Below are positions 2,536-59,212 of a DNA stretch of 64,000 bases, one piece after another. Under the pieces are notes generated by a model, which made no database searches, was not told the origin of the DNA, and was given only the letters and a program-made list of their open reading frames with translations. The DNA lies in NCBI GenBank assembly GCA_030608565.1, contig JAUWDY010000001.1:104238-168237 (forward strand), given 5' to 3'. This stretch comes from Candidatus Bathyarchaeota archaeon (GTDB lineage Archaea > Thermoproteota > Bathyarchaeia > Bathyarchaeales > Bathyarchaeaceae). Both the position numbers and the translations under genes were made by a program. The stretch's first letter is position 1, and each line of letters starts with the position of its first letter.

Positions 2536-2549
2536 ATGCATGCATGCAT
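2536..2549. promoter_or_regulatory. ATGCATGCAT-type palindromic motif, copy 1 ((ATGC)3AT)
   Basis: Read directly. Intergenic, upstream of the minus-strand gene 1924..2292. Confidence 0.4.
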
Positions 2550-2623
2550 TAACTTTTTTGAAAAAAAGGAGGATAGAAGGGTTTGTTAAGAGCAGTTGGA
2601 GTGCTGCTTAGCGTTTATGGGAT

Positions 2624-3073
2624 TTAGCCGTTAAGCGCTTTGGTTATTTTGACCGAGGAGCTTCCCCAGAAGATGGCGCCCCCCCATGTCTCACCTACAA
2701 GGCAGCCCGCCATGAAGTGGTTACCTCGTGTGGCATACGCGCTCCAGTCGCACTCTTGCGTGACAAAGTACAATACCATGTCTAGGTCGCCATCGCTATC
2801 GTAGTCCTCCATCGCCCAGCGCAATGGCGAAGCACCTAGAAACCCTACTGTCACAGGGTCAACTGTGGAAGCATCGAAACTGTCAGTTGTCTTTATAGCC
2901 ACTGGCGTGTTTCCCATGGAATTTGGGTTAATGGCATTCGGACAGCTCAGCGGTTTGACGTCGATCGCAATCTCCCCAGTGGGAGCCATGACTGGCACAG
3001 CCAACAGCAACGTTGAAAGCACCAGAAGTGCAATTCCAATTAGTTTTTTCATTCTTCTTTCTCCCTTATCCAA
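2624..3073 (-). CDS. secreted protein with DxDxDG-like calcium-binding motif
   Basis: N-terminal signal/TM segment KKLIGIALLVLSTLLLAVPVMA. Contains the motif DYDSDGDLDMV. Confidence 0.55.
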   Translation of the reverse strand: MDKGERRMKKLIGIALLVLSTLLLAVPVMAPTGEIAIDVKPLSCPNAINPNSMGNTPVAIKTTDSFDASTVDPVTVGFLGASPLRWAMEDYDSDGDLDMVLYFVTQECDWSAYATRGNHFMAGCLVGETWGGAIFWGSSSVKITKALNG

Positions 3074-3126
3074 AAAATATATGCATCATGTAAATAAAGA
3101 CTAATGGAAGTCTATTCTATAGTATA

Positions 3127-3144
3127 ATGCATATATGCATGCAT
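3127..3144. promoter_or_regulatory. ATGCATGCAT-type palindromic motif, copy 2 (ATGCATATATGCATGCAT)
   Basis: Read directly. Sits in the divergent intergenic region between 2624..3073 (-) and 3320..4576 (+). Confidence 0.4.
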
Positions 3145-3319
3145 AGCGGGGAAACGGAATGTGGATAAAATGAGTTTTTAACTCATCTCTGTGTTCACCA
3201 AATACAGAAATCCGTTCGTTAATCTTTTAAGGGAGAACCGCTATCGTGGAGGAGGATGCACATGTATCGTAGAACCTTCCGGAAAACAAAACGGAAACTA
3301 ACCTGTGAGGGTGTAAACA

Positions 3320-4576
3320 TTGAGTCAAAAAGAGGACAAGCCACGTTTCGGCTTCATGACACGCAATTACTTAGTGCTAACCCTCACATCAACACTATGG
3401 GGAATCCCCACAAGCATCTGTAACACCTACTTCTCTCTATACGTCTTCGGACTAGGCGGAACAGAAATAACCATAGGCTTAATCACAGCCCTAGGAAGCA
3501 CCGCTTTTGTCATATCCGCAATCATAGGCGGTCACATAGCTGATCTGTACGGCAGAAAGAAAATAATCAGCATAATGACCATAGTCCTCGGGTTAAGTCA
3601 ATTCCTGGTAGCATTTGCACCCAACTGGCAATTTCTAACCCTCGCCATGATTATAGTAAACATATGCTTCGTATTTGAACCCGCATTCTGGGCGATACTA
3701 GCAGACTCCATAAACGAACAGAAAAGAGGAACAGCCTTCGCACTCTACAGTTGCCTAAGTTTCCTTCCATGGGCCATAATGCCTTCCATCGGCGGCTACT
3801 TAATCGACATTCACGGCATTCTAGCCCCAATGCAGTGGACTTACGTTTGCTTGGCTATAGTAGGCGTAGCTGCTGGAATAATACGATTGTTTATGCTTAC
3901 AGAAACGATTTCTCCCCAGAATAGAAAAGCTGGTGGGCAATATAGCCTTAAAGAATTAGGCAAACTCGTGAAAGATGCTTTCAAAGGACACTTGCAAACG
4001 TGGTCGTGGATGCCCCGCTCGGCTCTTGCCTTAGCAGCTATCTATATTCTATGGGCATTCGAATACGGTTTGGTCGAACCTTACTGGATAGTTTACGCTA
4101 CAAAGGTAATCGGTGTCACATCTACACAATGGGGCATCATCATAGGTTTAGGAAGTGCAATCAGCATTGTATCAAAGATACTCATAGTCGGCAAGCTACT
4201 AGACAAATTCAGCCGAAGAAAAATCTTGTTAGCAACAACAGCCTTAGACATATTCACTTACCTGCTCTTCATACGTTGCGGCATGTACATACAAGTCCTA
4301 ACCCTCTGGATCGCAAGTTCCTTCATATGGTCCTTCTACGAACCCACATATTCATCATTAGAAGCAGACATAATCCCAGAAGAAAGAAGAGGAAGAGTAT
4401 TCGCTGCTTTCGGCGTTGCTTGGTCAGCCTTCAGCGTTCCAGCAAGTCTCCTAGGCGGATTCATTTATGAGCAAGTCAACCCTGAACTATCCTTCATCAT
4501 GGCATCAATTGGCATTATACTATGTTTTATTCTGACCGCACTATTCATCAAACAACCACAACACAATAAAAAGTAA
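3320..4576 (+). CDS. MFS transporter
   Basis: 418 aa with about 12 hydrophobic segments. Loop motif GGHIADLYGRKK is typical of the MFS TM2-3 loop. Confidence 0.8.
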   Translation: MSQKEDKPRFGFMTRNYLVLTLTSTLWGIPTSICNTYFSLYVFGLGGTEITIGLITALGSTAFVISAIIGGHIADLYGRKKIISIMTIVLGLSQFLVAFAPNWQFLTLAMIIVNICFVFEPAFWAILADSINEQKRGTAFALYSCLSFLPWAIMPSIGGYLIDIHGILAPMQWTYVCLAIVGVAAGIIRLFMLTETISPQNRKAGGQYSLKELGKLVKDAFKGHLQTWSWMPRSALALAAIYILWAFEYGLVEPYWIVYATKVIGVTSTQWGIIIGLGSAISIVSKILIVGKLLDKFSRRKILLATTALDIFTYLLFIRCGMYIQVLTLWIASSFIWSFYEPTYSSLEADIIPEERRGRVFAAFGVAWSAFSVPASLLGGFIYEQVNPELSFIMASIGIILCFILTALFIKQPQHNKK

Positions 4577-4627
4577 ATGATGATAAGCACGACTAACGCA
4601 CACACAACTCAGCACGACAAAAAACAC

Positions 4628-5311
4628 TTAACAAATTACTGTCCCAACCTTTTTCCCTTTCACAGCCAACAACACATTTTTTGGTTTAAACCCGTTCACC
4701 ACAACCGTCTTCGTCCTACTCTTCCGAAGAACACGAACAGCCTCAGGATCCAAAATTTGATGTATCCCCGCCTTATGCTTATCCTCATCAAACAATCGAA
4801 ACAAATCGTCAAAACCAAGCCTATCAATCATTTTCGCATCCGGATGCTTCCTCGGATCCTTACCGTATATGCCATCTTGATCCGTGGCCTTCACCAACAA
4901 TTCAGCCTTCACCTTTTCAGCCACCAAAGCCGCCACCGCATCCGTAGTCATACCCGGCTTCAAACCACCCATAACAACAATCTTCCCATGCTTCAAACAC
5001 TCAACAGCCTCATCCAAAGAAACAGGCACAGAACCACAACTCAATTCACCTAAACGCATAACAAACAACAAAGCAACCAAACGGGAAACAAAAATCGCAA
5101 CCCAATCTCTACTCGACTCGTCTAACCCCAGCTCACCCGCAACCCTAATAAAATCACGCGCCAACACGCCGCCACCAACAACCGCAACAACCTCATGCTC
5201 CTGCTTTTTCAAATTCTTCAACAAATCCACATACTTGGCTATAAGCGGAGATTCCACTGGAGAGGCCACCACCGAACCGCCGACACGAACCACAACCCTC
5301 AACGAAACCAC
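4628..5311 (-). CDS. pyrH: uridylate (UMP) kinase, archaeal type
   Basis: 227 aa. Shows amino-acid-kinase-fold motifs VRVGGSVV, VVGGG and VVMGG. Confidence 0.85.
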   Translation of the reverse strand: MVSLRVVVRVGGSVVASPVESPLIAKYVDLLKNLKKQEHEVVAVVGGGVLARDFIRVAGELGLDESSRDWVAIFVSRLVALLFVMRLGELSCGSVPVSLDEAVECLKHGKIVVMGGLKPGMTTDAVAALVAEKVKAELLVKATDQDGIYGKDPRKHPDAKMIDRLGFDDLFRLFDEDKHKAGIHQILDPEAVRVLRKSRTKTVVVNGFKPKNVLLAVKGKKVGTVIC

Positions 5312-5484
5312 CGTACCACCTAATGTTCGTAATAGAGCATAAATAAAACTCTCCCTGCTACTCTCCTATATGTCCCTGTGTCGCCATCTGTACATCTGAG
5401 CACCCGTACTCTAACTCACATAAAACAGAAACAAAAAAATCGTCACAAACCCAAATAACAAGTCCAAATCCCAGAGAGATAAAA

Positions 5485-6330
5485 ATGACCCAGCTCGAAC
5501 TCATCTTCCTAGGAACCGGAGGCGGAAGATTTGTAACCATCACCCAAAAAAGAAGAACCGCTGGAATCCGCATACTCTCCGAAAAACTGAACATACACCT
5601 AGACCCAGGACCCGGTGCTCTTGTACATTCGTTGAACATGGGGTTGAACCCTCAAAAAATCCGAGCAATACTAGTTTCCCACAGTCACCCAGACCACTAC
5701 ACCGACGCAGAAGTTCTCGTCGAAGCCATGACCCAAGGAACGACCAAAAGAAGAGGAATTTTAGCCGCACCCCACAGCGTCCTATTTGGCAATGAAACGT
5801 GTGGACCAGTGGTTTCAAAATATCATCAGCAGATGCCCGAGAACGTGATAGAGTTGAAAACAGGCGTTAATTTCAATATTAGCGACATAAAGATTACAGC
5901 TACTGAGGCTAGACACACGGATCCAGACACCGTGGGGTTTCGACTAGAAAACCGAGATTTCGGAGACATCGCTTACAGCTCTGACACCGAGTTCTTCGAA
6001 GGCGTTGGAAAACAGTACAAAGGGGTTCGACTCCTGTTGTTGTGTGTTATGAGACCTTCTGGAAAGCCTTGGAAAGGACACATGACCACTGATGATGCAA
6101 TCAAAATTGTAGAGGAGGCTGGTCCAGAGATGATTGTGATGACACACTTCGGAATGCAGATGATCTTCAGTGGGCCTTATCGCGAGGCGAAACTAATTGA
6201 ACAAAGAACTGGAGTTCCTACCACAGTGGCTTCGGATGGAATGCGTATAAGCGTGGGTGAGGAAATTCGGGTGCGGAGGATGGAGAGAAAACAGAAAGGT
6301 TTAGACGATTTTGTGAAATCGAGGAAATAA
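5485..6330 (+). CDS. MBL-fold metallo-hydrolase
   Basis: Carries the HxHxDH motif (VSHSHPDHY) and starts with GTGGG. Confidence 0.8.
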   Translation: MTQLELIFLGTGGGRFVTITQKRRTAGIRILSEKLNIHLDPGPGALVHSLNMGLNPQKIRAILVSHSHPDHYTDAEVLVEAMTQGTTKRRGILAAPHSVLFGNETCGPVVSKYHQQMPENVIELKTGVNFNISDIKITATEARHTDPDTVGFRLENRDFGDIAYSSDTEFFEGVGKQYKGVRLLLLCVMRPSGKPWKGHMTTDDAIKIVEEAGPEMIVMTHFGMQMIFSGPYREAKLIEQRTGVPTTVASDGMRISVGEEIRVRRMERKQKGLDDFVKSRK

Positions 6331-6380
6331 AATTTCACGAAGACCCTAGGTAAGGGGACGTCTAATGGTGGGGTGGCTGT

Positions 6381-6896
6381 TTAAAGGTATATGTCTATGA
6401 GTTTTCTTTTGATTAGTATGTAGATGACGATTGCGCTGATTATGAATTCGCCGACGAGGTATGTGCCATTGTATAAGGCTGAGGCAATTGCCCCCTCTAT
6501 GGTAGGAGATGTAAAGAAAAACATGCCAGACAAGAAGGAACAAATGAACCTACCAGCTATTCCGACCCCAACGCCAACTAACGGGTATCTTTTGAAGAAC
6601 CCTGCTAGGCCTAAGGCTGCAAAAGCCACGGGATAATCAAGCAAGCCCTGAACTGGATTAATAACATAGCCACCAAGCGACATGTGAACCAACCCATAGA
6701 TAACCCCAGCAAAAACTCCAAAGCGAAAACCTCTTCTCAGAGTAAACCAAATAAGCGGGACTAAACCCGCGATCGTGATGGACCCTCCTTGAGGAAGATG
6801 GTAGATTGGTGGTAAAACATCCTTCAGAATGATACTTAAAGCGACAATAACTGACAATTCTGTCAGTACTTTGGTTGGAAATCTTCTTTCTTTCAC
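6381..6896 (-). CDS. thiT: ThiT-like thiamine transporter (ECF-type S component)
   Basis: 171 aa with about 6 TM segments and a GTG start at 6896. A TPP riboswitch lies directly upstream. Confidence 0.75.
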   Translation of the reverse strand: MKERRFPTKVLTELSVIVALSIILKDVLPPIYHLPQGGSITIAGLVPLIWFTLRRGFRFGVFAGVIYGLVHMSLGGYVINPVQGLLDYPVAFAALGLAGFFKRYPLVGVGVGIAGRFICSFLSGMFFFTSPTIEGAIASALYNGTYLVGEFIISAIVIYILIKRKLIDIYL

Positions 6897-6899
6897 ATT

Positions 6900-6995
6900 T
6901 TTTCCCTCCGCCAGTATTATCTGGATCAGGTTCTAAGGGTCGACGGCGCGTTTTGCCGTCCTCTCAGCTGGGTCTTGCCCCTAGCTCCCCTCTTT
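6900..6995 (-). promoter_or_regulatory. TPP (THI-box) riboswitch
   Basis: The minus strand reads GGGGCAAGACCCAGCTGAGAGGACGG...GTCGACCCTTAGAACCTGATCCAGATAATACTGGCGGAGGGAA. This matches the conserved CUGAGA and ACCUGAUCUGGAUAAUGCCAGCG...GGGAA cores. It ends at the thiT start. Confidence 0.85.
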
Positions 6996-7164
6996 TCTGA
7001 CAGATGTTGTGTGAGTGACTAGTTGTGTTTATAATTGTTGCGGTTTAGTGCGCGTGTACGTGAGGGTGTCTACCCCTAGTCTATGCAATTCAATTAAGCC
7101 TCTAATACGACTAGTTGTTTTGGAAAGGATTAATAAGAAAGATGCGAAAGTTTCGTTGAAAAGA

Positions 7165-7269
7165 GCGGCGGTAGCGAAGCCAGGTCAAACGCGGAGGACT
7201 CAAGATCATGGTTGATGAGCTATCCTCTCCTGTAGGGGTTCGCCGGTTCGAATCCGGCCCGCCGCACCA
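7165..7269 (+). tRNA. tRNA-Leu(CAA) with 17-nt canonical intron (7205..7221), CCA encoded
   Basis: Folded by hand. Acceptor GCGGCGG/CCGCCGC, D arm GCG-13nt-CGC, anticodon stem GAGGA/TCCTC, loop CTCAAG|intron|A. BHB: central helix CTCA/TGAG flanked by 3-nt bulges AGA and CTA. Also has a long variable arm, T arm GCCGG-TTCGAAT-CCGGC and A73. Confidence 0.9.
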
Positions 7270-7313: not shown

Positions 7314-8000
7314 ATGAACAAATGTCTACAGATCATGAAGAAAATGATGAAGGACGCCTCGCTGTACATGGACTTGATCGAGACGGAGAATAGTGAAATC
7401 CGAGTTTGCGTGGAACTTTCCGACACAGGTGAATCCGCAACATTAGTTCTGGGAGAAGAAAATAAGGTTCTTGAAGGCTCTGTGAAACCTGACGGTAAGA
7501 TAGTGATGAAGAGAAGAGTGCTGGAAAGTATTGCTCAAGGAAAGGCAGACGCCTTCGCGCTTGCGGGTAGAGGCAGAGCAGATGAGGTGAGACCCATAGA
7601 ATTCGAAATCTACACTAAAGAACGCTCAAAAGAGATTTGGGAAACAGGAAAAGCACTCCTAACCTATTTCTTTACTCCCGGAAAAATCAAAGTCAAGAAT
7701 CTCAATCTCGAACTAGCTGGTTATGCTCATGGAGCTCACCCAATTCCGTTGGTATATTGGAATGGAATACGTTACAGCTGGATTCTTGTTAAACGCGGAG
7801 AGATTCTAAACAAGAAAAAAGAGAAAGACCCGTGGCCTCAGAGCTTTATCATTCTGGAGGGAAAAGGAAAAGCAATTGTGGGAGAGGAAACATTCGAAAT
7901 AAAGCCTGAAACCGTGATATACATTCCAAGAAATAGTATACATCAAATAATTGCCGAAGAAGACGTAAAAATGATTTGGCTAGCTTGGCAAGCTTGGTAG
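7314..8000 (+). CDS. SCP2-like / cupin two-domain protein
   Basis: The N-terminal half resembles an SCP2 sterol-carrier fold (RRVLESIAQGKADAFALAGRGRA). The C-terminus is a cupin barrel (GEETFEIKPETVIYIPRNSIHQI). The last codons run into tRNA-derived sequence. Confidence 0.6.
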   Translation: MNKCLQIMKKMMKDASLYMDLIETENSEIRVCVELSDTGESATLVLGEENKVLEGSVKPDGKIVMKRRVLESIAQGKADAFALAGRGRADEVRPIEFEIYTKERSKEIWETGKALLTYFFTPGKIKVKNLNLELAGYAHGAHPIPLVYWNGIRYSWILVKRGEILNKKKEKDPWPQSFIILEGKGKAIVGEETFEIKPETVIYIPRNSIHQIIAEEDVKMIWLAWQAW

Positions 8001-8008
8001 CTAATAGT

Positions 8009-8067
8009 AAGAACTCAAGATTCGTCCCAAATGGGGCATGTGGGTTCGAATCCCAGCCGTCGCGCCA
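8009..8067 (+). pseudogene. orphan tRNA-Leu-like 3' fragment (anticodon loop to CCA), no 5' acceptor strand
   Basis: Contains loop CTCAAGA (8014-8020), a CCC-AAAT-GGG variable-arm hairpin, TGGG-TTCGAAT-CCCA, then CCGTCGC-G-CCA. No complementary 5' strand (GCGACGG) was found in about 700 nt upstream. Confidence 0.4.
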
Positions 8068-8079
8068 TAAAATAATGTC

Positions 8080-8808: not shown

Positions 8809-9207
8809 CTACTTCGCTCCTTTTATGGAATCTAGCCAAACCCCGCGTCCCGTCAGAATCTCGAAGTCTGGGCTCCCGCATTTGGGGCATTTCAGGTATG
8901 TGTGAGCAATTTCTGGGACAAAATGAATGAACTCTGACACGTCGTGATCCATGTTCTTCGTGCTAAACTTCCATTTGTGATTACAAACTCTGCACTTTAA
9001 CTCAGCCTTTACAGTTTCCAAACTAAATTTGGCGTTTTTGAGCATGGGAGACCGAAGTTGAGACAAAGCGAACTCGAATATTTCTTGGTCTATCTGCTGT
9101 AGTTCACCGATTTTGATTTTGAGTTCAATGACCTCTTTTAGTTCCTTTTCTTCCGCTATTTTAAGGGTAGTAGAGATCACTGCTTCCGCTAAAGCCCATT
9201 CATGCAT
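8809..9207 (-). CDS. hypA: hydrogenase nickel-insertion protein HypA
   Basis: N-terminal MHEWALAEAV and zinc site CRVC...CPKCGS. Confidence 0.9.
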   Translation of the reverse strand: MHEWALAEAVISTTLKIAEEKELKEVIELKIKIGELQQIDQEIFEFALSQLRSPMLKNAKFSLETVKAELKCRVCNHKWKFSTKNMDHDVSEFIHFVPEIAHTYLKCPKCGSPDFEILTGRGVWLDSIKGAK

Positions 9208-9289
9208 AGTGAGCCTACAGACTAGTTATGTATTAAAATGTTGTTGAGTTGTTGCCACACGAGATTACAAGAAAGAAGAGGCTTGGATA

Positions 9290-10735
9290 TTAGAGGAAGC
9301 TGAGAGACCGTGCTTCCTTAAGGTAACTCTCTGCATCAAGTTTCCACGCTTTAACGTCAAATTCTCCTCTCGTCTCAGCGAGACCCTTCACAAAATTTCC
9401 AGCGTCCGAATCTTTCCACCAAACTTCACCGTAGTCCTGCCTTAATCTTTCTCTGACTGCTGCAACTCTAATGGACGCAATCACGTAGCTTGGCGAATAC
9501 ATATCGTAGCTAGGCATTACATGATGAAGCAACCAATAGTTTCCGGGAACCTCTATGAAAAACCGCTTGGTAAGTTCTTGCCACCGTTTTGCAGCTTCTT
9601 CGATGCTGTACCCCTTCTTCCAGAACTCCATCTTCATGATGCCGTTCGCCGCGTAAAATGTTAGGAACGCCAACTCCATGAATCTTCTACGATCAATGAT
9701 TTCATTGATGACTCTGTCCGATAGTTTTAGTTCTTGCTTGAGAAAGAGTGGGGTGTCAAGCATGCTTTCAATAAGGATGCTAAAGGTTTCAGCCACACTC
9801 CTGGGGACAACATAACGTTTCCATACAGGATCATCTGGATTAGCACATATGCCATGGATACCATGCCCGAACTCATGGAAGACGCTTCCAAAATCTGCGA
9901 AGGGTGATACTTTGCGGAAGCAGACTCGAACGTCGTTGGGAATCTGGATTCCATAGCAGAAAGCACTGGGGCTCTTCTTCTCGCGATCTTCAGCATCTAC
10001 CATGATTTTGGAAGGGTTAAATCCGAAGGTTACAAGAAACCTCTTGACCTCATCTAAGGCGTCTATCTTCTCAAAATACTTATTCAACGGCTCGTATATG
10101 TGACCTCGCCAAGTATAATAATCATCATAATATTCCATTTTCTTCTTGCCCAAAACCTCGGGTGCAAAATGTGCAGCCGCAGCCAGAAAAGTATCCTTGG
10201 CTCCATCCCCTAACCTAATGAGCAGATCCCGCAACTCATCGTATCTTATGCCTTCAAACTCCAAATAACTGTCCAGAGGAGTAAGATCATACTTCTCATA
10301 CACATCCTCTGAGATGCCCATCCGCTTCTCGACGAGAAAGGCTATGTCAGGAGCCTTCGCTATGAAATCGTCGAACACCTCCTTCCGCTTCATGTAATCA
10401 TCCGTCCCAGAGTTGAATTGACGCCAGTTCCCCCAATTCACCCTGCGACCTGCGATTCTATATTTCTCGGTAGATATCTTCTCCATCCGTTGATCATGGA
10501 GATCGAGTTCCGTCTCCAGTTTCTCAGCATCCGCAACAGTTGCTATTGAGGTCAAGTACATACTTCGAGGTTCCACAAAATTCCCAAGAAACTCGAGGCT
10601 AACCTCTATGAGCTGGTCCGAAAGCTTCTTCATCATACCCCTGTCGTAGGACAGCCCGGCCATTTGGTTGTAGCGTTGCTCAGAAAATTGAACCGTCAGC
10701 TTCTCATACCTTGATGCGATTTTCTCGAGCGACAA
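9290..10735 (-). CDS. zinc metallopeptidase, M3 (oligoendopeptidase F)-like
   Basis: HEFGH zinc-binding motif (VFHEFGHGIHG). 481 aa. The subfamily was not verified. Confidence 0.55.
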   Translation of the reverse strand: MSLEKIASRYEKLTVQFSEQRYNQMAGLSYDRGMMKKLSDQLIEVSLEFLGNFVEPRSMYLTSIATVADAEKLETELDLHDQRMEKISTEKYRIAGRRVNWGNWRQFNSGTDDYMKRKEVFDDFIAKAPDIAFLVEKRMGISEDVYEKYDLTPLDSYLEFEGIRYDELRDLLIRLGDGAKDTFLAAAAHFAPEVLGKKKMEYYDDYYTWRGHIYEPLNKYFEKIDALDEVKRFLVTFGFNPSKIMVDAEDREKKSPSAFCYGIQIPNDVRVCFRKVSPFADFGSVFHEFGHGIHGICANPDDPVWKRYVVPRSVAETFSILIESMLDTPLFLKQELKLSDRVINEIIDRRRFMELAFLTFYAANGIMKMEFWKKGYSIEEAAKRWQELTKRFFIEVPGNYWLLHHVMPSYDMYSPSYVIASIRVAAVRERLRQDYGEVWWKDSDAGNFVKGLAETRGEFDVKAWKLDAESYLKEARSLSFL

Positions 10736-23270: not shown

Positions 23271-23387
23271 CACGTAATCAAAGTGTGAACAGAGTTTTCA
23301 CTAGGCTTAGAAACAAAACACAACCTAAAAGTAACCCTGACACAAGCCATGATCCCCCCTAGGTAGGGGGGTCTATAAAGAGAGAGA
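23271..23387 (-). repeat. 117-bp repeat, copy A (inverted relative to copy B at 31603..31719)
   Basis: The hand-aligned reverse complement matches copy B over 117 nt with roughly a dozen differences. Contains TTTATAGA, then the C6-TACCTA-G6 palindrome, then a conserved segment of about 80 nt. Confidence 0.85.
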
Positions 23388-23407: not shown

Positions 23408-23447
23408 AGGGGGGGGCTATAGGGGGGTCTAATAAGAGAGAGACACC
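23408..23447 (-). repeat. partial third copy of the repeat's inner end
   Basis: The reverse complement GTGTCTCTCTCTTATTAGACCCCCC matches the start of copy B (31600-31623) nearly perfectly. It then diverges to CTATAG-C8. Confidence 0.7.
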
Positions 23448-23505
23448 CACAAATAACCTAACAAGCAAAAACGTTCAATTCTACTATTCACAAAACACCA
23501 ACAGA

Positions 23506-31557: not shown

Positions 31558-31602
31558 GTGGTGTTTTTGAAGAGTGGCTTTTTGTTATGTTATTTGCGCG
31601 TG

Positions 31603-34970: not shown

Positions 34971-35729
34971 ACTCAGTAACACAATACTTTTGGCTTTGTA
35001 TACTGGAACAACTGGATAAGCATTAAGCTGACAGCAAAACTTCACATCTTCTTCATGCCCTATGTCTTTAAGATATCGTGCGTGGCTTCCACGTTGAATA
35101 ATCTTAGTTAACTGTCTACACGATTGTTGAAAAGTTAATGACGCCGCTAAAACAGCATCTGAACATTCAATTTTGTCGGCTGGTATGTTCTCCACGATTG
35201 CCCCTGCACACATGAAGTCTTCTAGCGAAAACCGTCCACGCGCCCCTGAAAGCACAAAAGAAATCCCAACCGTTTCTTTTTCAGCAATTTCAAAAGCGGT
35301 CTTGGCAACAGCCTCAGCATTAAAGAAGGCTCCGATCAGCACCCACCTTGCATTTTTGGATAAGCAGATAGCCTTTGTCCCACTTGTAGTGGTCAAAACT
35401 ACATGCTTTTCTTTCACAATGTTAGAAGAAAATTCGAGCGGCGAGTTTCCTAAATCGAATCCTTTGGGCTTTATTGCTTTTCTTTCGCCAGCTAGCAAAA
35501 ACTCGGGATGTTTCTTATGAAGTGCTTGGGCTTCTTTGATGGTTTTTGTTGGAATCACCTCTTTAGCGCCGTTCGCTAACGCCGTGACAATGGTGGAGCA
35601 GCACCTCAAAACGTCAATGACAACAAGCACGTCTCCTCTGCTTACTGCTTTCACAGCATCCTTTGCACTCAGTTCTAGGCTTACTGGCACTTTTTCTTGA
35701 GTCAGGGTTTGCGTTTTTGTCTTCTTCAT
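34944..35729 (-). CDS. 2-phosphosulfolactate phosphatase (ComB) family protein
   Basis: VVIDVLRCCSTIVTALANGA is typical of the ComB family. 261 aa. Confidence 0.7.
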   Translation of the reverse strand: MKKTKTQTLTQEKVPVSLELSAKDAVKAVSRGDVLVVIDVLRCCSTIVTALANGAKEVIPTKTIKEAQALHKKHPEFLLAGERKAIKPKGFDLGNSPLEFSSNIVKEKHVVLTTTSGTKAICLSKNARWVLIGAFFNAEAVAKTAFEIAEKETVGISFVLSGARGRFSLEDFMCAGAIVENIPADKIECSDAVLAASLTFQQSCRQLTKIIQRGSHARYLKDIGHEEDVKFCCQLNAYPVVPVYKAKSIVLLSLDEESTFS

Positions 35730-37583: not shown

Positions 37584-37721
37584 ATGAATCAGCTATAGTA
37601 TAGTTGTAACTAGAATAAAAAATCCCGAAATTTATAAGTTGCGGTTGATAAAAAAGTTATTTGAAAACCTTTGATATTGAGAAACGTTGTAGAGCATAAG
37701 GAGTTGGATTCTTGCTAAGGC

Positions 37722-37731
37722 CATGCATGCA
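37722..37731. promoter_or_regulatory. ATGCATGCAT-type motif, copy 3 (CATGCATGCA)
   Basis: Read directly. Intergenic, upstream of 36822..37583. Confidence 0.4.
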
Positions 37732-37753
37732 CCATCTGGTATATACACTTAAA

Positions 37754-37764
37754 GCATGTATGCA
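37754..37764. promoter_or_regulatory. ATGCATGCAT-type motif, degenerate copy (GCATGTATGCA)
   Basis: Read directly. One mismatch to the core. Confidence 0.3.
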
Positions 37765-37813
37765 AAGAAAAATCAGAGTTTATTATGAAAACCAATGTTG
37801 ACTGATAAATTGT

Positions 37814-37823
37814 ATGCATGCAT
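37814..37823. promoter_or_regulatory. ATGCATGCAT-type motif, copy 4
   Basis: Read directly (tgtATGCATGCATtc). Intergenic. Confidence 0.4.
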
Positions 37824-38229
37824 TCGAGACCGCCTTCGCTCGTAGTTGAGAGAGGGTATAACTAGCGCGGAATGAATGAAGCAGTTTATGTCGCGCGCTT
37901 GCGCGATTGCGAAGCCTCAAGCAACATCGCAAATTAACTCGGCATGGAACCAAATAAAAATGAAAGTTTACGAATCAGTCACACAAGACACAGATTGACC
38001 GTATTTCTTGTGGGTTGTCGATATCAGAGCATGTAGGAAACTGGGTCATAGAAAACACAGAGCCAATAGATCAAAGAGTGAAGAAAAGCAAAGGGCAACT
38101 AACAAGAATAACAATAAAAAATCTAAACAAAATCAAACTGGAAGAATGGCTAAACATGATAGGGATCACTAGTAAAACAGCGTTACTAAGTAGTTAGTGA
38201 TTTTTTACATTAAAGCCTTCTACAGAAGA

Positions 38230-39633
38230 TTACAGTAACATTTTTAGCTCATCGATGGCCTGCAAAGCTCGTTTTCCACGCTTGGTAATTTTGAAGTATT
38301 TTCTTCTCTCCCTTTTATAGGCAATCACCAACCCTCTTTCTGAGAGTTCGTTTAGGTGCTGATAGACAGCGGCTCGTGTCATTGTTTTTCCAAGTTTTTT
38401 CCATAGGTCATAGCCGTAAGTGTCTTTTCTGCTGAGAATGCGCAGAATCTTTTCTTTTGTGCTTAATTCTAGGCCGACTACAGCGGTTTTGCGTTTTTTC
38501 GTCAGGGCCTGTAGTACATCGGTTGCTTTCAAACCGCTTGCGGTTATGAGACATACAACGCTGTCTTTCTTGTTGATAGTACCTTGAGCAACCATTTTTT
38601 CGAGCGCGGCTATTGTAGCTGAGCTCGCTGGCTCTGCAAAGATTCCTTCAAGCCTTGCGATTTTTTGTTCAGCGGTGAAGATTTCGGAATCGCTGACTGA
38701 GACAGCGATACCTTTCGATTCTGTTAGCGCCTTCAGTGCCCATATTCCGTTAAACGGGTTGCGCACAAGGATTCCTAAGGCGTGTGTGGACGGCTTATGA
38801 ACAACAGTTGGTTTTGATTTGCTTTTCAGGTGTGCATTGACTATGGGTGCGCATCCGTGAGCTTGTACGCCGACCATCTTCGGTAGCGTTTCAATCCTCC
38901 CGAGCATTTGCAGTTCTTTGAAGCCCTTCCAAATGGAGTATATAATTCCACCGCTCCCCATAGAAACGACGAACCAGTCGGGTACTCCAAATTGTTCCGC
39001 AACTTCGTATGCTACAGTTTTCTGGGCTTCAATTACGAGGGGGTTCAATTCAGCCGTGGCTTGATACCAACCTGTCTCTGCCGCCAATGACTCTGCCCGT
39101 TCTATGGAGTCGTCAACAATTTCACCGTATTCGTCAAGGATAGCATCGTAGATCAGCATTTGAGCCAGCTTACCCATGTCAACCAGTTTGGGAACAATAA
39201 TGTGACACGTGAGTCCAGACTTTGCGCAGTAAGCAGCCGAAGAGGCTCCTAGGTTCCCGTTCGAAGCACAAACCATAGAATTATGCTTCAAATCTAAAGC
39301 GTTGGAAACCATTAACGCGGCGCATCTGTCTCTAAAGGAATTCGTGGGGTTTCGTGTTTCATCCTTAAGATACACTGCACTCAAACCAAGCTTTTTGCTA
39401 AGACGCGTAGCTTTATGTAGGGGGGTGCCACCTTCGCCCAGTGTCACGGTGTTTTTGACTTCTGGAAGAAGTCGTTTGTATTTCCAAAAAGAGAGGGCAC
39501 CATCGAGCTTGATTCCTCTTAACTGTTCGAAATCAAGAGCATACTCCAAGAGGCCTCCGCACTTTTCGCATTTATATCGTGGAGGATACGGCTTCAGAGT
39601 TGCTGAACACTGGGTGCATCGCAAAATCGTCAT
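38230..39633 (-). CDS. threonine synthase-like PLP enzyme with N-terminal zinc ribbon and C-terminal PadR-type winged HTH
   Basis: N-terminus CTQCSATL...CEKCGG. ThrC-like fold-type II PLP core (TNSFRDRCA). The last 70 aa or so, ILRILSRKDTYGYDLWKKLG...AVYQHLNELSERGLVIAYKRERRKYFKITKRGKRAL, match the PadR pattern. Confidence 0.75.
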   Translation of the reverse strand: MTILRCTQCSATLKPYPPRYKCEKCGGLLEYALDFEQLRGIKLDGALSFWKYKRLLPEVKNTVTLGEGGTPLHKATRLSKKLGLSAVYLKDETRNPTNSFRDRCAALMVSNALDLKHNSMVCASNGNLGASSAAYCAKSGLTCHIIVPKLVDMGKLAQMLIYDAILDEYGEIVDDSIERAESLAAETGWYQATAELNPLVIEAQKTVAYEVAEQFGVPDWFVVSMGSGGIIYSIWKGFKELQMLGRIETLPKMVGVQAHGCAPIVNAHLKSKSKPTVVHKPSTHALGILVRNPFNGIWALKALTESKGIAVSVSDSEIFTAEQKIARLEGIFAEPASSATIAALEKMVAQGTINKKDSVVCLITASGLKATDVLQALTKKRKTAVVGLELSTKEKILRILSRKDTYGYDLWKKLGKTMTRAAVYQHLNELSERGLVIAYKRERRKYFKITKRGKRALQAIDELKMLL

Positions 39634-44325: not shown

Positions 44326-44471
44326 GCCGGGGTGTCCTAGAGCAACGCGTCAAATGCGGGAAATCAGGTAGGGAGCAGATTCAACCTGAAAAGAAGCTCA
44401 CGCCTGGAGTTCGATTAGAAAGCCTGTGGTCCTTTTGGGCCGCGTGGGTTCGAATCCCACCCCCGGCGCCA
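44326..44471 (+). tRNA. tRNA gene (146 nt, CCA encoded) with about 70 nt of intervening sequence; isotype unresolved, class-II/Ser-like features
   Basis: Acceptor GCCGGGG/CCCCGGC, T arm GTGGG-TTCGAAT-CCCAC, G73 and CCA. A GGTCC-TTTT-GGGCC hairpin just 5' of the T arm resembles a long variable arm. No canonical anticodon arm or BHB could be built by hand. Confidence 0.7.
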
Positions 44472-44510
44472 AACTCCACGAACTACGTTTGAACCCTCGT
44501 TTTGAAATTT

Positions 44511-45208: not shown

Positions 45209-45295
45209 GATGAAACTTCCCGCGTGCGCAACGGAGGAAACTCTTCCACCCTACAGGCTTGCACTGACCGTAGAGGATTTACTCTGCCCCGATAC

Positions 45296-45305
45296 ATGCA
45301 TGCAT
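45296..45305. promoter_or_regulatory. ATGCATGCAT-type motif, copy 5
   Basis: Read directly (acATGCATGCATtt). Lies 88-97 nt upstream of the start at 45208. Confidence 0.4.
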
Positions 45306-45361: not shown

Positions 45362-45574
45362 TCATTTTTCAGGTCTAACGATTAAATATCCTTCATTAAT
45401 TAGCCAGTGATGAAATTGCCATGTTGTAAATTTACATTTTGTCCTGCAAATTTGCCTTACTTTTTCATATTCCTCAGAACCCGGCTTCTTAGAATTTAAC
45501 TCCAATTGTACTGGACATTTTACATCATTGCAGAATTCTCTCTTCCTATAATCGACATATCCTTGAATTGACAT
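45362..45574 (-). CDS. small Cys-containing protein (70 aa), hypothetical
   Basis: ORF track. Cys pattern CNDVKCP...CRTKC. Confidence 0.4.
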   Translation of the reverse strand: MSIQGYVDYRKREFCNDVKCPVQLELNSKKPGSEEYEKVRQICRTKCKFTTWQFHHWLINEGYLIVRPEK

Positions 45575-56747: not shown

Positions 56748-58051
56748 AAGAATTTGTTTAGATCAACTCTTCTGTATCCCTCTTTTCTAAACCCTTTACC
56801 CGTTTTTTTGAACGGAATCGTCGCGTCCAACCCCATCTTACATGTTGTCGCTTTTTTTCCTTCAGTCAAATCTCCAGATGGATCAAGAGAAGACCCTCTT
56901 TGTTTTGGCAGGATAACAGCGTCTTTATCTGCCTGAAATCTCGTTGCAATGCCCCATTCAACGTCGTTTGGATCATAGATGTTTATATCGTCATCCACAA
57001 CAATACAGTGTTTCAATGAGCTGTGGCCTTTAAAGGCTGCTTCAATCGTTTTCTTTCCGTCATCTGGATTCCGTTTCTTTATTTGCACCACCGCGTGGAG
57101 CCAGCTACAACCGCCAGGAGTTATGTAAACATCTTTACATTCGCAGACTTTATTCACTTCGTTAAAAATTGTTGGTTCTCTAGGCATTCCCATCAAGAAT
57201 TTATGTTCGTTTCTTCCAGCAAGTATGGTTTGGTAAACGGGATTTTCTCTGTGAGTTATGCAGTTGATTTCTATCACTGGTTGCTGTCTTACTCTATCGA
57301 TAATTCCTGTCAGATCTAAGAATGGCCCCTCTTCTGTTCTTTCTTTTGTTATCCTTCCTTCTAATACAACCTCGCAGTCCTTCGGGACTTCAATGTCAAT
57401 GGTTTTACACTTCACCAACTCTGTTTTTTCCAGTGCGTTCGCCATTCCCATTTCGTCAACGCCTTTTGGTAGAGATGTGGCGGCAGCAAGAAGAACAGCT
57501 GTTGAGTTGCCTATGCAAATTGCGATGTCGAGTTCACCGCCAGACTTTTTAAGGGCAGTGTCGGTTCCCCTCTCTTCAACGATCCTAGCTACGAACCTGT
57601 TTTTACCTAGTAGCATCAACCTGTGGAAACATGTGTTTCTGCCTAATTCAGGATCTTTTATTATGCAGATAGCCGATGCGATGTATTTTCCGCCGTCTTT
57701 TTCTGTGTACCTCATTATGGGAAGCTTTGTTAGATCAACATCTTTCTCAACTATTTCCTGGCATTCTCCCTTCTCCACAACATCGGGGTGCACAGGGTTT
57801 TCTATGGCATTGGATAACTTGTGCAACAATTGTGCCTTCTTAATGTTCAACGCTTGGGCAATCAGTTTTTTAGAAGAGATGAGGCCGCCTACAACGGGGA
57901 TGCTTGATTCTTTCACTTTCTCAAAGAATACGGGTTTCTCGCCGAGAGCATCTATAATCCCTGCTATCTCATACTCGGTTGACACTTCCTTTTTAATTCT
58001 TATCAATTCTCCATTTTTGTCAAGCTGTTCCAGAAAACTTCTAAAACCCAA
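56744..58051 (-). CDS. UbiD-family decarboxylase, putative trans-anhydromevalonate-5-phosphate decarboxylase
   Basis: 435 aa with UbiD family features. Operon context with mvk and the aconitase X subunits. Confidence 0.8.
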   Translation of the reverse strand: MGFRSFLEQLDKNGELIRIKKEVSTEYEIAGIIDALGEKPVFFEKVKESSIPVVGGLISSKKLIAQALNIKKAQLLHKLSNAIENPVHPDVVEKGECQEIVEKDVDLTKLPIMRYTEKDGGKYIASAICIIKDPELGRNTCFHRLMLLGKNRFVARIVEERGTDTALKKSGGELDIAICIGNSTAVLLAAATSLPKGVDEMGMANALEKTELVKCKTIDIEVPKDCEVVLEGRITKERTEEGPFLDLTGIIDRVRQQPVIEINCITHRENPVYQTILAGRNEHKFLMGMPREPTIFNEVNKVCECKDVYITPGGCSWLHAVVQIKKRNPDDGKKTIEAAFKGHSSLKHCIVVDDDINIYDPNDVEWGIATRFQADKDAVILPKQRGSSLDPSGDLTEGKKATTCKMGLDATIPFKKTGKGFRKEGYRRVDLNKFL

Positions 58052-58102
58052 TCTTATCCCTGCTATAAAGGTAGTTTCTTGTTTCTGATAAGGCTATTCT
58101 CT

Positions 58103-59056
58103 TTATATTTTTTGAATCCCGATCTTTGCTCTCAGTACTTTGAATCCCTCTTTTTCCATTGCTGTGGCAACCGCTTCTTGCAGTTCTTTTCCTGGCGTTA
58201 ACGCTACCATGCAGCCTCCACCGCCACCGCCAGTTAGTTTTGCTCCAAACGCGCCCTGCTCTCGAGTTAAATTGATCAGATAATCCAATTCTTTGCAAGA
58301 AACCTCAATTTGTTGCAGTAAGCCATGATTTTCGTTCATTAACCTTCCGACTTTTCTTAAATCAAAATCTTCTAAGGTCTTTCTCGCCTCGAGCGCTAAC
58401 CATTCTGCTTGATTGAACAATGGATCGTATTTTTCTGGATTTTCGTTCTTTCTTTCCGCAACGCCTGCAACCATTTCTTTCGTGTCAGCGACAACTCGCG
58501 TGCTGCCTATGACAATTTCAACGGGCTGTCTTATACTCAATCTTTCAATTGTGTTTTGGCCTCCGCTTAGATTCCTCCTGAACCAGATTAGCCCTCCGTA
58601 GGTTGCCGCGGAGTTGTCGATGCCTGAGGGTGTTCCGGCGTAAGCTTTCTCAGCTTCATAAGCAATTTCATTAATTCTTTCATCTGACAAATTCATTTCT
58701 AACTCCTCGGCTATAGCTCTAGCGATTGCAACGCTGCTTGCTGCAGAAGCACCAATTCCGCTGAAGCCGGGGAGATTTCCTCCTAACCAAATCTCTAAAA
58801 ACGCCTTTTCCAAATCGATTCCCATGGTTTTAAGCATTCTCTGAATCGACTCTTTTTGTTGGGTTCTCTTCTTTTCAGTGTAACCTTTTGCGCCTCTTCT
58901 TTCATCCTTTATAGTGATTCCGTCTCCAATTTTTTTCACCTTTGCATCAGCTGTTAAATCAATTGCAGAAACAATCCCTGGCACGCCGTGAACAACGAAA
59001 TGTTCGCCAAACAAAATGACTTTTCCGAAACCAGAACCTCTTCCCATCGAAACCAC
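58103..59056 (-). CDS. mvk: mevalonate kinase
   Basis: GKVILFGEHFVVHG and the GHMP motif PGFSGIGASAASSVA. Confidence 0.9.
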   Translation of the reverse strand: MVSMGRGSGFGKVILFGEHFVVHGVPGIVSAIDLTADAKVKKIGDGITIKDERRGAKGYTEKKRTQQKESIQRMLKTMGIDLEKAFLEIWLGGNLPGFSGIGASAASSVAIARAIAEELEMNLSDERINEIAYEAEKAYAGTPSGIDNSAATYGGLIWFRRNLSGGQNTIERLSIRQPVEIVIGSTRVVADTKEMVAGVAERKNENPEKYDPLFNQAEWLALEARKTLEDFDLRKVGRLMNENHGLLQQIEVSCKELDYLINLTREQGAFGAKLTGGGGGGCMVALTPGKELQEAVATAMEKEGFKVLRAKIGIQKI

Positions 59057-59164
59057 CTAGGTAATCAATGGTTTCCAAAAATTTAAATAGATGGATTATG
59101 CGGGTTCCGAAGTTAAACTCATCGAAGAGGCTAAAGACTCTCTGTGAAGCGGTTAGGGGAGTGC

Positions 59165-59174
59165 ATGCATGCAT
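59165..59174. promoter_or_regulatory. ATGCATGCAT-type motif, copy 6 (within GCATGCATGCATG)
   Basis: Read directly. Lies about 110 nt upstream of the mvk start. Confidence 0.4.
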
Positions 59175-59212
59175 GTGTTGTTGAAATGCCATAATTTACT
59201 CGGAAGTCATGA

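Follow-up and report, generated by a model that had tools for sequence, protein, structure and literature searches.

Background

HIP1 (GCGATCGC) is a highly iterated octamer palindrome of cyanobacteria. Other extragenic palindromes, the REP/REPIN sequences, are mobilised by RAYT transposases. Short symmetric sites also bound small cassettes, namely the attC sites of integrons, which are 57-141-bp folded imperfect repeats (R''/R' boxes) beside intI, and the Xer-type pdif sites, which are 28-bp XerC/D sites with conserved arms. For HIP1, roles in recombination, transformation and chromosome structure have been proposed (PMC5861425; bioRxiv 10.1101/2024.09.10.611283), with the link to chromosome structure made in one study (PMC5861425) and a link to Chi-like or uptake effects in the other (bioRxiv 10.1101/2024.09.10.611283).

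Here we describe a short palindromic element in a 64-kb stretch of DNA from a member of the Bathyarchaeia (the window). By analogy, its closest known kind would be HIP1: both are perfect 8-bp palindromes, over-represented in one lineage and flank-free, and the mechanism of neither is agreed. HIP1, however, is much more frequent, with densities that reach more than one per gene, occurs in genes and spacers alike at sites shared among genomes, and has a cognate methyltransferase, whereas the element is restricted to non-coding DNA, lies mainly in strain-specific DNA and at block edges, and has no cognate methyltransferase among the genes of the 64-kb window. Like the REP/REPIN sequences, the element is extragenic, lineage-specific and palindromic, occurs singly or in close pairs and is found at rearrangement sites; REPs, in contrast, are RAYT-dependent imperfect palindromes of 20-40 nt with stable hairpins and a conserved tetranucleotide, whereas the element has 8-14 nt and no stable hairpin. 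Neither the 64-kb window nor any of the fetched loci yielded a RAYT (IS200/IS605-like) transposase. The element resembles attC and pdif in being a short symmetric site that bounds small cassettes, with mosaic boundaries at the sites, and differs from them in its length of 8-14 bp, its unrelated flanks and the lack of a recombinase gene in the 64-kb window; moreover, attC and pdif need a matching site in the recipient, whereas recipient alleles of the element are without one.

Two further systems share its geometry. The tandem 8-bp met boxes of MetJ are likewise 8-bp dyads whose units may overlap or follow in tandem, but operators of this sort have a fixed promoter position, degenerate variants and orthologous conservation, none of which the element shows, the mevalonate kinase copy excepted. 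Type II restriction sites are also short, perfect, flank-free palindromes, read by a symmetric enzyme, and cutting and joining at such sites would place them at block edges; they are usually avoided, whereas the element is enriched, and the 64-kb window holds no genes of a cognate system. The same word (TGCATGCA / CATGCATG) serves as a eukaryotic cis-element, in the ApiAP2 sites of apicomplexans and the plant RY element. This match is a sequence coincidence between unrelated organisms and proteins and no evidence of kinship. The literature that pairs TGCATGCA with 'archaea' concerns only apicomplexan parasites or, once, a tick-borne bacterium, and none of it links the word to archaea.

The Bathyarchaeia are abundant and uncultured, and gene exchange between their genomes is little known; to our knowledge, no mobile-element or recombination system has been described for the clade concerned here.

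Copies of the element in the window

All of the sites listed in the original prediction were present in the window sequence. Table 1 gives them, each extended as far as the cyclic TGCA pattern continues, together with the blocks that they border.

Table 1. Copies of the element and associated blocks in the window
Feature	Position	Strand	Sequence	Remarks
Copy 1	2536..2549	.	ATGCATGCATGCAT	(TGCA)3 core; 74 nt beyond stop of secreted-protein gene 2624-3073(-)
Copy 2	3135..3144	.	ATGCATGCAT	additional separate ATGCAT at 3127-3132
Copy 3a	37722..37731	.	CATGCATGCA	at border of replaced block
Copy 3b, degenerate	37754..37764	.	GCATGTATGCA	one mismatch; within replaced block
Copy 3c	37814..37823	.	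ATGCATGCAT	within replaced block
Copy 4	45295..45305	.	CATGCATGCAT	57 nt beyond stop of 70-aa Cys-rich ORF 45362-45574(-)
Copy 5	59162..59175	.	TGCATGCATGCATG	between 95-aa ORF 59213-59500(-) and mevalonate kinase promoter
Cassette-like unit	2550..3134	-		promoter, 142/149-aa secreted-protein gene and T-rich terminator hairpin; copies 1 and 2 at its two ends
Replaced block	37721..38023	.		303 nt; substitutes for about 330 nt in nine assemblies of 95-97% identical relatives
Variable segment	44503..45308	-		214-aa Cys-rich membrane protein gene; flanked by copy 4 and a tRNA gene (3' end near 44475)

Each copy is a run of (TGCA)2-3.5 that is complete in itself, mostly aTGCATGCAt. The core octamer, TGCATGCA, is invariant; A and T next to it are favoured, being present in 64-68% of the clade copies, yet variable. 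Runs of 4, 5, 6 and 7 nt numbered 174, 54, 8 and 1, and those of 8 to 14 nt numbered 2, 2, 9, 2, 3, 4 and 2, respectively. The distribution is bimodal, which marks a discrete element and not a drifting site. One-mismatch copies were not in excess (4 seen versus 2.9 expected, with two of the four overlapping perfect copies), and the flanks of the copies are unrelated, conservation being confined to the 8-14-nt run. Copies paired at distances of only 66-327 nt were observed in the window and in the relatives L083, L167 and L170. The window has 12 intergenic tetranucleotide runs, and 6 of these have a TGCA-type unit. Other short tetranucleotide runs, (GGTT)5.5 and (TTCC)3, are found at 2434-2479.

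The claimed enrichment was borne out. The octamer TGCATGCA gave eight matches at six places, against 1.00 ± 0.94 expected from dinucleotide-preserving shuffles of the window, and none of the 100 shuffles reached eight. All of the matches fall in the non-coding DNA, taken as the 14.2% of the window not covered by an ORF of 80 aa or longer, in which about 0.11-0.17 would be expected against the eight observed (Poisson p≈2e-11), and TGCATGCA ranks first among the over-represented intergenic 7-mers and 8-mers of the window. The coding DNA of the window contains 11 ATGCAT hexamers and not one TGCATGCA octamer, in line with the statement that all copies are intergenic and that coding sequence holds single hexamers only. 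Sites 1-3 were reproduced in the Logan assemblies of one run (L001, L162), and the same copies recur across independent assemblies from different projects (L167/L168/L169; L170/L171; window/L001/L162).

Each copy had also been said to lie 60-250 nt upstream of a start codon. The numbers are correct; the distance is nevertheless uninformative, because a palindrome reads alike in both directions and, in a compact genome, any spacer position precedes some gene. Three of the window copies lie only 37-75 nt 3' of a stop codon. At copy 4 the upstream gene is the 70-aa ORF at 45362-45574.

On folding, the 10-mer gave 0 kcal/mol and the 14-mer -2.7 kcal/mol, that is, no stable hairpin at the usual length. 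Of the earlier proposal of a dimeric regulator site or a cruciform, the perfect dyad stands, the cruciform is unsupported by these energies, and a shared operator is poorly supported, as discussed below. Since there is no stable hairpin at the usual length, recognition of the duplex by a putative symmetric (dimeric) protein would be the most natural way of reading the element.

Distribution among relatives

In the clade of close relatives, 22 intergenic copies were counted in 149.6 kb (23.8 kb intergenic), or 0.92 per kb intergenic, versus two in 812 kb (105 kb intergenic), or 0.02 per kb, in sister Bathyarchaeia with PyrG 75-87% identical and the same composition. The intergenic density is therefore about 50-fold higher in one narrow group of uncultured Bathyarchaeia than in its sister lineages, for a clade sample of some 150 kb that comes from a few metagenome-assembled lineages and in which the places are not fully independent. 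Judged from these sequences, the motif is clade-specific, with a recent expansion limited to one lineage. Turnover of copies is fast between relatives of 95-99% identity; other copies stay in place across relatives of 93-99% identity though the neighbouring bases differ. Orthologous copies vary by base substitution, never by unit number.

Copies at the edges of rearranged blocks

The copies mark the edges of inserted, swapped or lost DNA blocks. A permutation test placed 7 of 18 copies within 11 nt of a homology breakpoint, compared with 1.8 expected (p=0.0009), and five copies within 5 nt, compared with 1.15 expected (p=0.004). BLAST segment ends coincide with the motif at window positions 45305 and 59162/59173, at L083 5130, at L167 5590 and 9830, at L170 9830/9833 and at L172 41. 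Flank-by-flank mapping showed one-sided homology at the majority of informative places, and the bulk of the copies fall at block edges or in DNA specific to a strain. Their position at the edges of rearranged blocks makes the element look like a mark or tool of rearrangement and not like a gene switch. The empty alleles do not have even one TGCA at the junction; the motif would therefore come with the new DNA or arise at the joint. The new blocks had no match among the other sequences fetched, and no repeated sequence is common to the motif-bearing regions.

The clearest comparison was obtained at the ECF-S locus, where the relatives are collinear with the window apart from the single replaced block. 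Copy 3a (37722-37731) is the border of this 303-nt block to the nucleotide; the left end of the site-3 block carries no motif. An 83-aa ORF that the relatives conserve loses its 5' part through the replacement, which leaves a 60-aa ORF, 38015-38197(+). None of ten assemblies from relatives at 95-97% DNA identity has the ECF-S copies. The idea that copies lie at breakpoints preceded the retrieval of these relatives, and their comparison agreed with it.

The secreted-protein unit (2537..3136) has copies on both sides. Copy 1 is the 3' edge of the unit common to L163, L164 and L166, and copy 2 is its 5' edge, in the spacer of the divergent secreted-protein and MFS genes; relatives carry the unit without the motif and in different gene contexts. 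Homology of the window with L082 and L083 stops exactly at copy 4, and in L083 an ABC-transporter pair occupies the place of the variable segment. At copy 5 both edges are homology breakpoints versus L167 and L170. This copy is kept in L173, L167, L170 and L174 and is absent from L172, which lost it along with the promoter region; five lineages in all keep a copy upstream of mevalonate kinase, with three different left flanks. A copy is likewise kept upstream of the Zip gene while one neighbour changes, and in L170 the Zip gene (8875..9833) has copies on both sides.

Motif-free breakpoints were also observed, for example where the NHL-gene insertion of L082 begins and ends and at the IS/R-M insertion in L286, and the L083 copies at 8362 and 2757 sit 36-170 nt within a block instead of at its end.

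Possible origin of the element

The element (a)TGCATGCA(t), in some copies extended by a third TGCA, may well be the site or the remnant of sequence-specific DNA breakage and rejoining, left at block ends, and we tentatively favour this reading over the others. A putative symmetric enzyme of the lineage, for which a nuclease, a topoisomerase-like or a strand-transfer enzyme would be candidates, would bind the duplex palindrome and break the DNA there or beside it. The palindrome would stay on the broken end, and end joining or template switching would then link this end to other DNA in the spacers of transcription units. Because the ends would keep the palindrome, inserted, replaced or deleted blocks would start or finish with a copy; each rearrangement may seed a copy at a fresh location, and copies would remain intergenic because events within genes would be purged by selection. 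The enzymatic and sequence-specific nature of the breakage, what the enzyme is, and how the ends are joined are all inferred. Some of the evidence sits less well with breakage and rejoining. No nuclease, recombinase, transposase or methyltransferase gene, nor any candidate for the enzyme, is present in the 64-kb window; several breakpoints are motif-free and some copies lie 36-170 nt within blocks; the new blocks match none of the other sequences fetched; the sample is small; and the persistence of the copy upstream of mevalonate kinase in five lineages also fits a selected function. Restriction-modification systems do occur in the relatives, within motif-free insertions (L172 has an EcoO109I-like system, and L286 has a methyltransferase together with an HNH nuclease).

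A more specific form of breakage and rejoining is somewhat unlikely. Here the element would be a flank-independent junction sequence of one Bathyarchaeia clade: a symmetric enzyme would break at (a)TGCATGCA(t) and the ends would be pasted between transcription units, so that promoter-gene-terminator modules would be shuffled, replaced and deleted at 8-14-bp marks. It would amount to cassette exchange resembling that of integrons or restriction and ligation, with a site ten times smaller and a recipient that needs no matching site. If the element is indeed a junction mark, it would be of practical use as a marker with which to map the flexible genome in metagenomes, and would offer a handle on the responsible enzyme through a gene present in motif-bearing genomes and absent in their sisters. 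The lineage-specific iterated octamer palindromes represented by HIP1 form an unexplained class, to which the element adds a second, very different case; as the link of the element to rearrangement is directly visible by sequence comparison, it may help to explain that class.

It is unlikely, though worth weighing, that the octamer is selected in the manner of HIP1, as a site of a nucleoid, methylation or recombination-stimulating factor, with its placement at breakpoints secondary: copies would lie in the sole DNA that tolerates rearrangement, and a dispersed 8-14-mer, identical from place to place, would be the best available microhomology for illegitimate joining. The perfect 8-bp palindrome, its strong over-representation and its lineage specificity suit this explanation, as do the copies that hold position across 93-99% relatives while adjacent bases change; the scarcity of near-misses would be expected under purifying selection or biased repair, and HIP1 itself is similarly unexplained. 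Unlike HIP1, however, the element is missing from coding DNA and is concentrated in strain-specific DNA instead of at conserved positions, and a 50-fold rise to about one copy per kb of spacer in a shallow clade is hard to achieve by point mutation and selection. Furthermore, recipient alleles at several junctions are without the motif or TGCA, so these junctions are not products of microhomology between two pre-existing copies.

The idea put forward originally, that the element is the operator of a dimeric transcription factor for the downstream transporters, membrane proteins and mevalonate kinase, is doubtful. The perfect dyad, the intergenic position 56-330 nt 5' of start codons, the transporters among the neighbours (MFS, ECF-S, Zip, ABC) and the mevalonate kinase copy kept in five lineages are consistent with it. 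The spacing to TATA-like boxes and start codons is, however, not fixed over these 56-330 nt, there is no phasing with TATA, and the flanks are featureless. Copies tend to be nearer to the preceding stop codon than to the following promoter, many of them lying 5-75 nt past that stop and distant from the next promoter, and some are beside pseudogene remnants or in convergent spacers (L167 3655, 3982, 5596). The neighbouring genes share no functional theme. Conservation in orthologous promoters failed as well: those of ECF-S (in the ten assemblies above), TruB/PyrG and the secreted-protein gene are without the motif in close relatives, and the mevalonate kinase copy, the exception, was lost in L172 with its promoter region. 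Degenerate sites are not in excess, and the sister lineages have the two copies in 812 kb noted above. If the operator reading were true, it would mean a large and very young regulon in an archaeon without genetics.

Still less probable is a footprint or target-site duplication of a cut-and-paste element inserting at TGCA (or ATGCAT) with a 4-bp stagger, in which insertion and excision would leave TGCATGCA and a second round (TGCA)3. Such an origin would account for the (TGCA)2 or (TGCA)3 units, the preferred A..T flanks, the two size classes about 4 nt apart and the association with variable DNA, and selection against frameshifts would explain the restriction to non-coding DNA. Against it, TGCA is missing from the position in the empty or ancestral-like alleles; no TGCA-flanked element with terminal inverted repeats and no repeat shared between motif-bearing regions was found, nor any transposase near a copy, nor direct repeats outside motif pairs.

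An ordinary tetranucleotide microsatellite, grown by slippage from ATGCAT seeds, is largely refuted and very improbable: formally, the element consists of 2-3.5 tandem units of ATGC, and the (GGTT)5.5 and (TTCC)3 runs at 2434-2479 lie nearby, but half of the 12 intergenic tetranucleotide runs are of one unit type, the lengths are bimodal and not geometric, orthologous copies differ by substitutions and not unit number, and sister lineages of the same composition nearly lack the element (2 in 812 kb). Chance, composition or an assembly artefact, for which the small sample size alone speaks, is rejected, as 0 of 100 shuffles reach the observed count, the copies recur in independent assemblies, and the element, at 8-14 nt, is below the k-mer length of the assembler.

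Occurrence and nature of the palindrome

In the window the octamer TGCATGCA has eight matches at six places, against an expectation of 1.00 ± 0.94, and none of 100 dinucleotide-preserving shuffles gave 8; the 10-mer ATGCATGCAT, with at most one mismatch allowed, has 10 matches versus 1.84 expected. By a crude gene call, which took the longest non-overlapping ORFs with a minimum of 80 aa, 76 ORFs make up 85.8% of the window and leave 9,069 nt of intergenic DNA, in which all eight octamers lie and only 0.11-0.17 would be expected. The octamer and its sub-words rank highest among the over-represented intergenic 7-mers and 8-mers, and the coding DNA of the window contains hexamers only. The re-derived runs and these shuffle and intergenic counts bear out the coordinates and the enrichment given in the original prediction.

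Copies of the palindrome, homology ends that fall on it, orthologous copies and the closest relatives
Feature	Genome or locus	Position or sequence	Remark
Copy 1	window	2536-2549	maximal cyclic run
Copy 2	window	3135-3144	maximal cyclic run
Copy 3a	window	37722-37731	maximal cyclic run
Copy 3b	window	37754-37764	one mismatch
Copy 3c	window	37814-37823	maximal cyclic run
Copy 4	window	45295-45305	maximal cyclic run
Copy 5	window	59162-59175	maximal cyclic run
Homology end	window	45305	against L082 and L083
Homology ends	window	59162 and 59173	both edges; against L167 and L170
Homology end	L083	5130	
Homology ends	L167	5590 and 9830	
Homology end	L170	9830/9833	
Homology end	L172	41	
Orthologous copies	window and L173	(TGCA)3 and TGCATGCATGTA	
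Orthologous copies	L170 and L174	...CATGCAT and ...CATGAGT	
Orthologous copies	L174 and L172	(TGCA)3T and TGCATACATGCAT	
Relative	L167, L168, L169		mevalonate kinase 96%; three independent assemblies of one 348-kb contig
Relative	L170, L171		mevalonate kinase 93%
Relative	L172		mevalonate kinase 94%
Relative	L173		mevalonate kinase 99%
Relative	L174		mevalonate kinase 95%

The element is a self-contained run of (TGCA)2 to (TGCA)3.5, and since the TGCATGCA core is flanked mostly by A (64%) and T (68%), its commonest form is the 10-mer palindrome. Pairwise comparison revealed nothing in common among the copies in 120 nt on each side, there was no signal in positional base composition or TATA-like words around 20 independent copies, and one-mismatch octamers were not in excess (4 seen versus 2.9 expected, two of the four overlapping perfect copies). 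A longer repeat, MITE or IS was rejected, because flanks compared pairwise and against all loci share nothing past the run; a promoter element was rejected because flank composition and TATA-like words are unphased. Rfam found no RNA family at any copy and only a TPP riboswitch and one tRNA across the window, both away from the copies, so an RNA element was rejected as well. Folded as single-stranded DNA, the 10-mer gains no stability (0 kcal/mol) and the 14-mer very little (-2.7 kcal/mol). With folding this weak, the cruciform proposed in the original prediction would not be stable at the usual length; a hairpin or cruciform role is unlikely, which leaves duplex DNA as the form in which the element must be read.

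Distribution among relatives

A search with CTP synthase placed the window in Bathyarchaeia. The closest GTDB representatives, including 'Bathyarchaeota archaeon BA2', are 84-86% identical in PyrG; they are without the motif, and their spacers upstream of the ECF-S gene are just 60-90 nt. Among the metagenome loci fetched, L082 (PyrG 94%) has one intergenic copy and L083 (PyrG 90%) four, and about 70 loci at 75-87% have background matches only, mostly coding. Mevalonate kinase homologues provided closer relatives (see table), of which L167 and L170 each carry five copies in 21 kb. In total, 149.6 kb of the window's clade, 23.8 kb of it intergenic, contain 22 copies in intergenic DNA plus 3 in doubtful ORFs, whereas 812 kb of sister lineages, 105 kb of it intergenic, contain 2 in intergenic and 10 in coding DNA. 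Per intergenic base the clade has about 50-fold more copies; the clade figure comes from about 150 kb of metagenome assemblies of few lineages, and the places compared are not fully independent. The lengths of the clade's intergenic runs are bimodal: runs of 4, 5, 6 and 7 nt number 174, 54, 8 and 1, and a second mode follows from 8 to 14 nt (2, 2, 9, 2, 3, 4 and 2 runs). Run lengths in the sister lineages decay near-monotonically except for two isolated 13-nt runs.

Copies at homology breakpoints

The window, L082, L083, L167, L170 and L172 were compared by BLAST, and homology segments were seen to end on the motif (see table); BLAST segment ends are approximate, and the key ends were checked in alignments. 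When the copies were re-placed at random intergenic positions 20,000 times, a breakpoint at most 11 nt away was found for 7 of 18 copies versus 1.8 expected (p=0.0009), and one at most 5 nt away for 5 of 18 versus 1.15 expected (p=0.004). At most of the informative places, with each flank mapped separately, the homology is one-sided. Thus, with a slash marking the junction, the window's reverse strand reads CAATAGAGAAA/TGCATGCATGTATCGGGG where L082 reads CAATAGAGAAA/GCTACAACG, and L083 reads GGTTTAA/TGCATGCATAATAAG where L082 reads GGTTTAA/ATCCTTG.

Upstream of the mevalonate kinase gene, a block that begins with the motif is common to L167, L170 and L174, and the DNA to its left is different in each, either a Zip gene or an insert containing fragments of a tRNA and of a kinase gene; the motif directly adjoins the conserved block in the window and in L173. 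The block upstream of the Zip gene likewise begins with the motif in L174, in L172 (as the decayed copy TGCATACATGCAT) and in L167, which has a different left neighbour.

The kinase-upstream spacer is also an insertion hot spot (L172 7712-9971; L167 9397-9885). The L172 insertion carries an EcoO109I-like endonuclease and an N6/N4 methyltransferase, with loss of the kinase promoter. L167 and L172 both contain a degenerate piece of a tRNA 3' end, and in both a part of the kinase C-terminal domain is present in reversed orientation. In L282 (GCA_046760805.1; kinase 89%) a ribosomal-protein/enolase/Memo block lies directly upstream of the mevalonate kinase gene and shares its strand; the window's clade has this block downstream of the gene and inverted (window 48-59 kb compared), and because of this arrangement the clade's spacer would be an old inversion breakpoint.

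Empty alleles and cassettes

Close relatives lacking a copy have no TGCA at all at the corresponding position. For instance, the TruB-PyrG spacer reads GAGATTA/TAGGCG in both the window and L082, and at that point L083 has an 88-nt insertion with the motif central in it; the 3' region of the secreted-protein unit in L163 reads AAATGAAAAGTCA. As these empty alleles are free of TGCA, the motif is not produced by duplication of a resident TGCA, and crossing over between two pre-existing copies cannot explain all of the junctions.

A secreted protein of 142/149 aa has its promoter, gene and T-rich terminator bracketed by copies 1 and 2. This unit also turns up, without the motif and in other gene contexts, in L163, L164 and L165 (protein 81% and 73% identical) and in L166 (61%), and the window's DNA homology to these units ends within a few nt of each copy. 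In L170 the Zip gene lies between a copy at 8875 and another at 9833. Some copies form close pairs, spaced by 66-327 nt, at window 37722/37814, L083 5065/5131, L170 1806/1967 and L167 3655/3982, and the DNA inside each is unique to that pair. A 58-nt stretch between or after copies (L082 827-884; L083 5073-5130) contains, by eye, an inverted copy, with slight degeneration, of the final 27 nt of the tRNA gene ending near window 44475, such as an integration event might leave behind. The spacer of copy 1 also has (GGTT)5.5 and (TTCC)3 runs at 2434-2479, 60-100 nt from that copy, and the Logan contig L162 terminates at the GGTT run.

Block replacement at the ECF-S gene

After the idea of junctions had been formed, relatives with 96% identity to the ECF-S protein were fetched, in ten assemblies from different samples. 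None of the ten has a run of at least 8 nt. Nine are collinear with the window, with DNA 93-97% identical on both sides, save for one block: 303 nt of the window (37721-38023) stand in place of about 330 nt of unrelated sequence. At the border, the window's reverse strand reads ...CCAGATGGTGCATGCATG/GCCTTAGCAAG and the relatives read ...AAATTCGGGA/CCTTAGCAAG; this alignment makes copy 3a the exact end of the new block, with copies 3b and 3c internal to it. The other end of the block has no motif. The replacement deletes the 5' part of an ORF of 83 aa that the relatives conserve, so that an ORF of 60 aa remains (38015-38197); as the conserved ORF is cut short, the window allele is derived.

In the tenth assembly (L286, DNA 97.7% identical) an insertion of 5.65 kb (181-5832) replaces the PALP-PadR/ECF-S spacer. 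It encodes an IS240/IS66-like DDE transposase together with an N6/N4 methyltransferase and an MTaX1-HNH nuclease. Since this insertion contains no TGCA palindrome, the rearrangements are not all tied to the element. The neighbouring gene in the window (38230-39633, minus strand), conserved in relatives, encodes a 467-aa protein with a PLP-dependent (PALP) enzyme domain and a C-terminal PadR-type winged helix.

Possible explanations

The account that covers most of these facts, which we hold tentatively, is that the palindrome may be a site of sequence-specific breakage and rejoining. A palindrome-bearing end would be joined elsewhere between transcription units; blocks would consequently begin or end with a copy, new DNA would bring new copies, and either edge of a copy could be a breakpoint. 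It is a conjecture that the size classes of about 10 nt and of 12-14 nt represent joints in which a four-base stagger was or was not filled in. Much firmer than this enzymology is the general claim that the element is junction-associated and insertion-borne, and not an operator. A Pfam scan found no transposase, integrase, nuclease or methyltransferase in 46 of the about 76 window ORFs.

The nearest described kind is HIP1 (PMC5861425; bioRxiv 10.1101/2024.09.10.611283), a lineage-specific iterated octamer palindrome, one of whose defining features is a cognate methyltransferase. A selected palindrome of this type, a less likely reading, would share with our element a strongly over-represented perfect octamer and lineage specificity, but HIP is present inside genes at conserved positions and the element is not; selection of this type leaves unexplained the confinement to non-coding, mostly strain-specific DNA and the block borders at copy edges, even where the other allele has no copy. 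The regulator site suggested in the original prediction agrees with the dyad symmetry and the intergenic location, but the idea of an operator regulon fails on spacing, orthologous conservation, degenerate variants and gene content. Orthologous copies differ by substitutions and not in unit number (see table), and the octamer core upstream of mevalonate kinase is retained in five lineages, which alone is not significant at about 5% flank divergence; the absent unit polymorphism and the length spectrum dismiss microsatellite slippage. A transposon footprint fails on the empty alleles and the lack of any element found, and classical site-specific recombination fails on the lack of conserved arms and of a site in the recipients.

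The element behaves more like a cassette-bounding site, such as integron attC or Xer-type modules, but is not a member of these families, as it lacks their architecture; we class it as a dispersed short palindrome. Its word is that of the apicomplexan ApiAP2 and plant RY elements, a coincidental likeness. In the literature, no paper was found that ties the word to an archaeal function, or ATGCAT to an insertion-sequence target-site duplication. A viral or plasmid origin was tried and rejected: an IMG/VR scan for ATGCATGCATGCAT gave 107 matches, about chance level, none of the top motif-dense contigs inspected looked related to the clade, and the two cassette proteins had no relatives in viral contigs. 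One phage-like IMG/VR contig (L281; 13.5 kb, 33% GC) has 10 separate TGCATGCA copies, at least four of them inside ORFs, a HIP-like pattern unlike that of the clade element.

Other features of the window

A 117-nt inverted repeat (23271-23387 / 31603-31719, 88% complementary; also 23423-23464 / 31582-31623) brackets the 8.2-kb ribosomal-protein operon. The end of the relative L287 agrees at 98.6% with the distal arm (23276-23345) instead of the syntenic one, a hint that the operon was inverted or that the two arms underwent gene conversion. ARAGORN reported no tRNA in the window. The Rfam tRNA is 102 nt long, a length that implies an intron, and two more tRNA 3' ends are visible, with the GGTTCGAA T-loop and CCA; these genes (regions 7165-7266, about 7990-8075 and about 44380-44475, all plus strand) probably contain introns and were missed. 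The TPP riboswitch (6886-6996, minus strand) scores 58.9 bits, which exceeds the gathering score, and is located upstream of a gene for a thiamine transporter of the ThiT/YuaJ type (6381-6896) in this Bathyarchaeia genome. The window of this BA2 relative also has a gene for 2-phosphosulfolactate phosphatase (ComB, coenzyme M pathway) at 34944-35729 on the minus strand.
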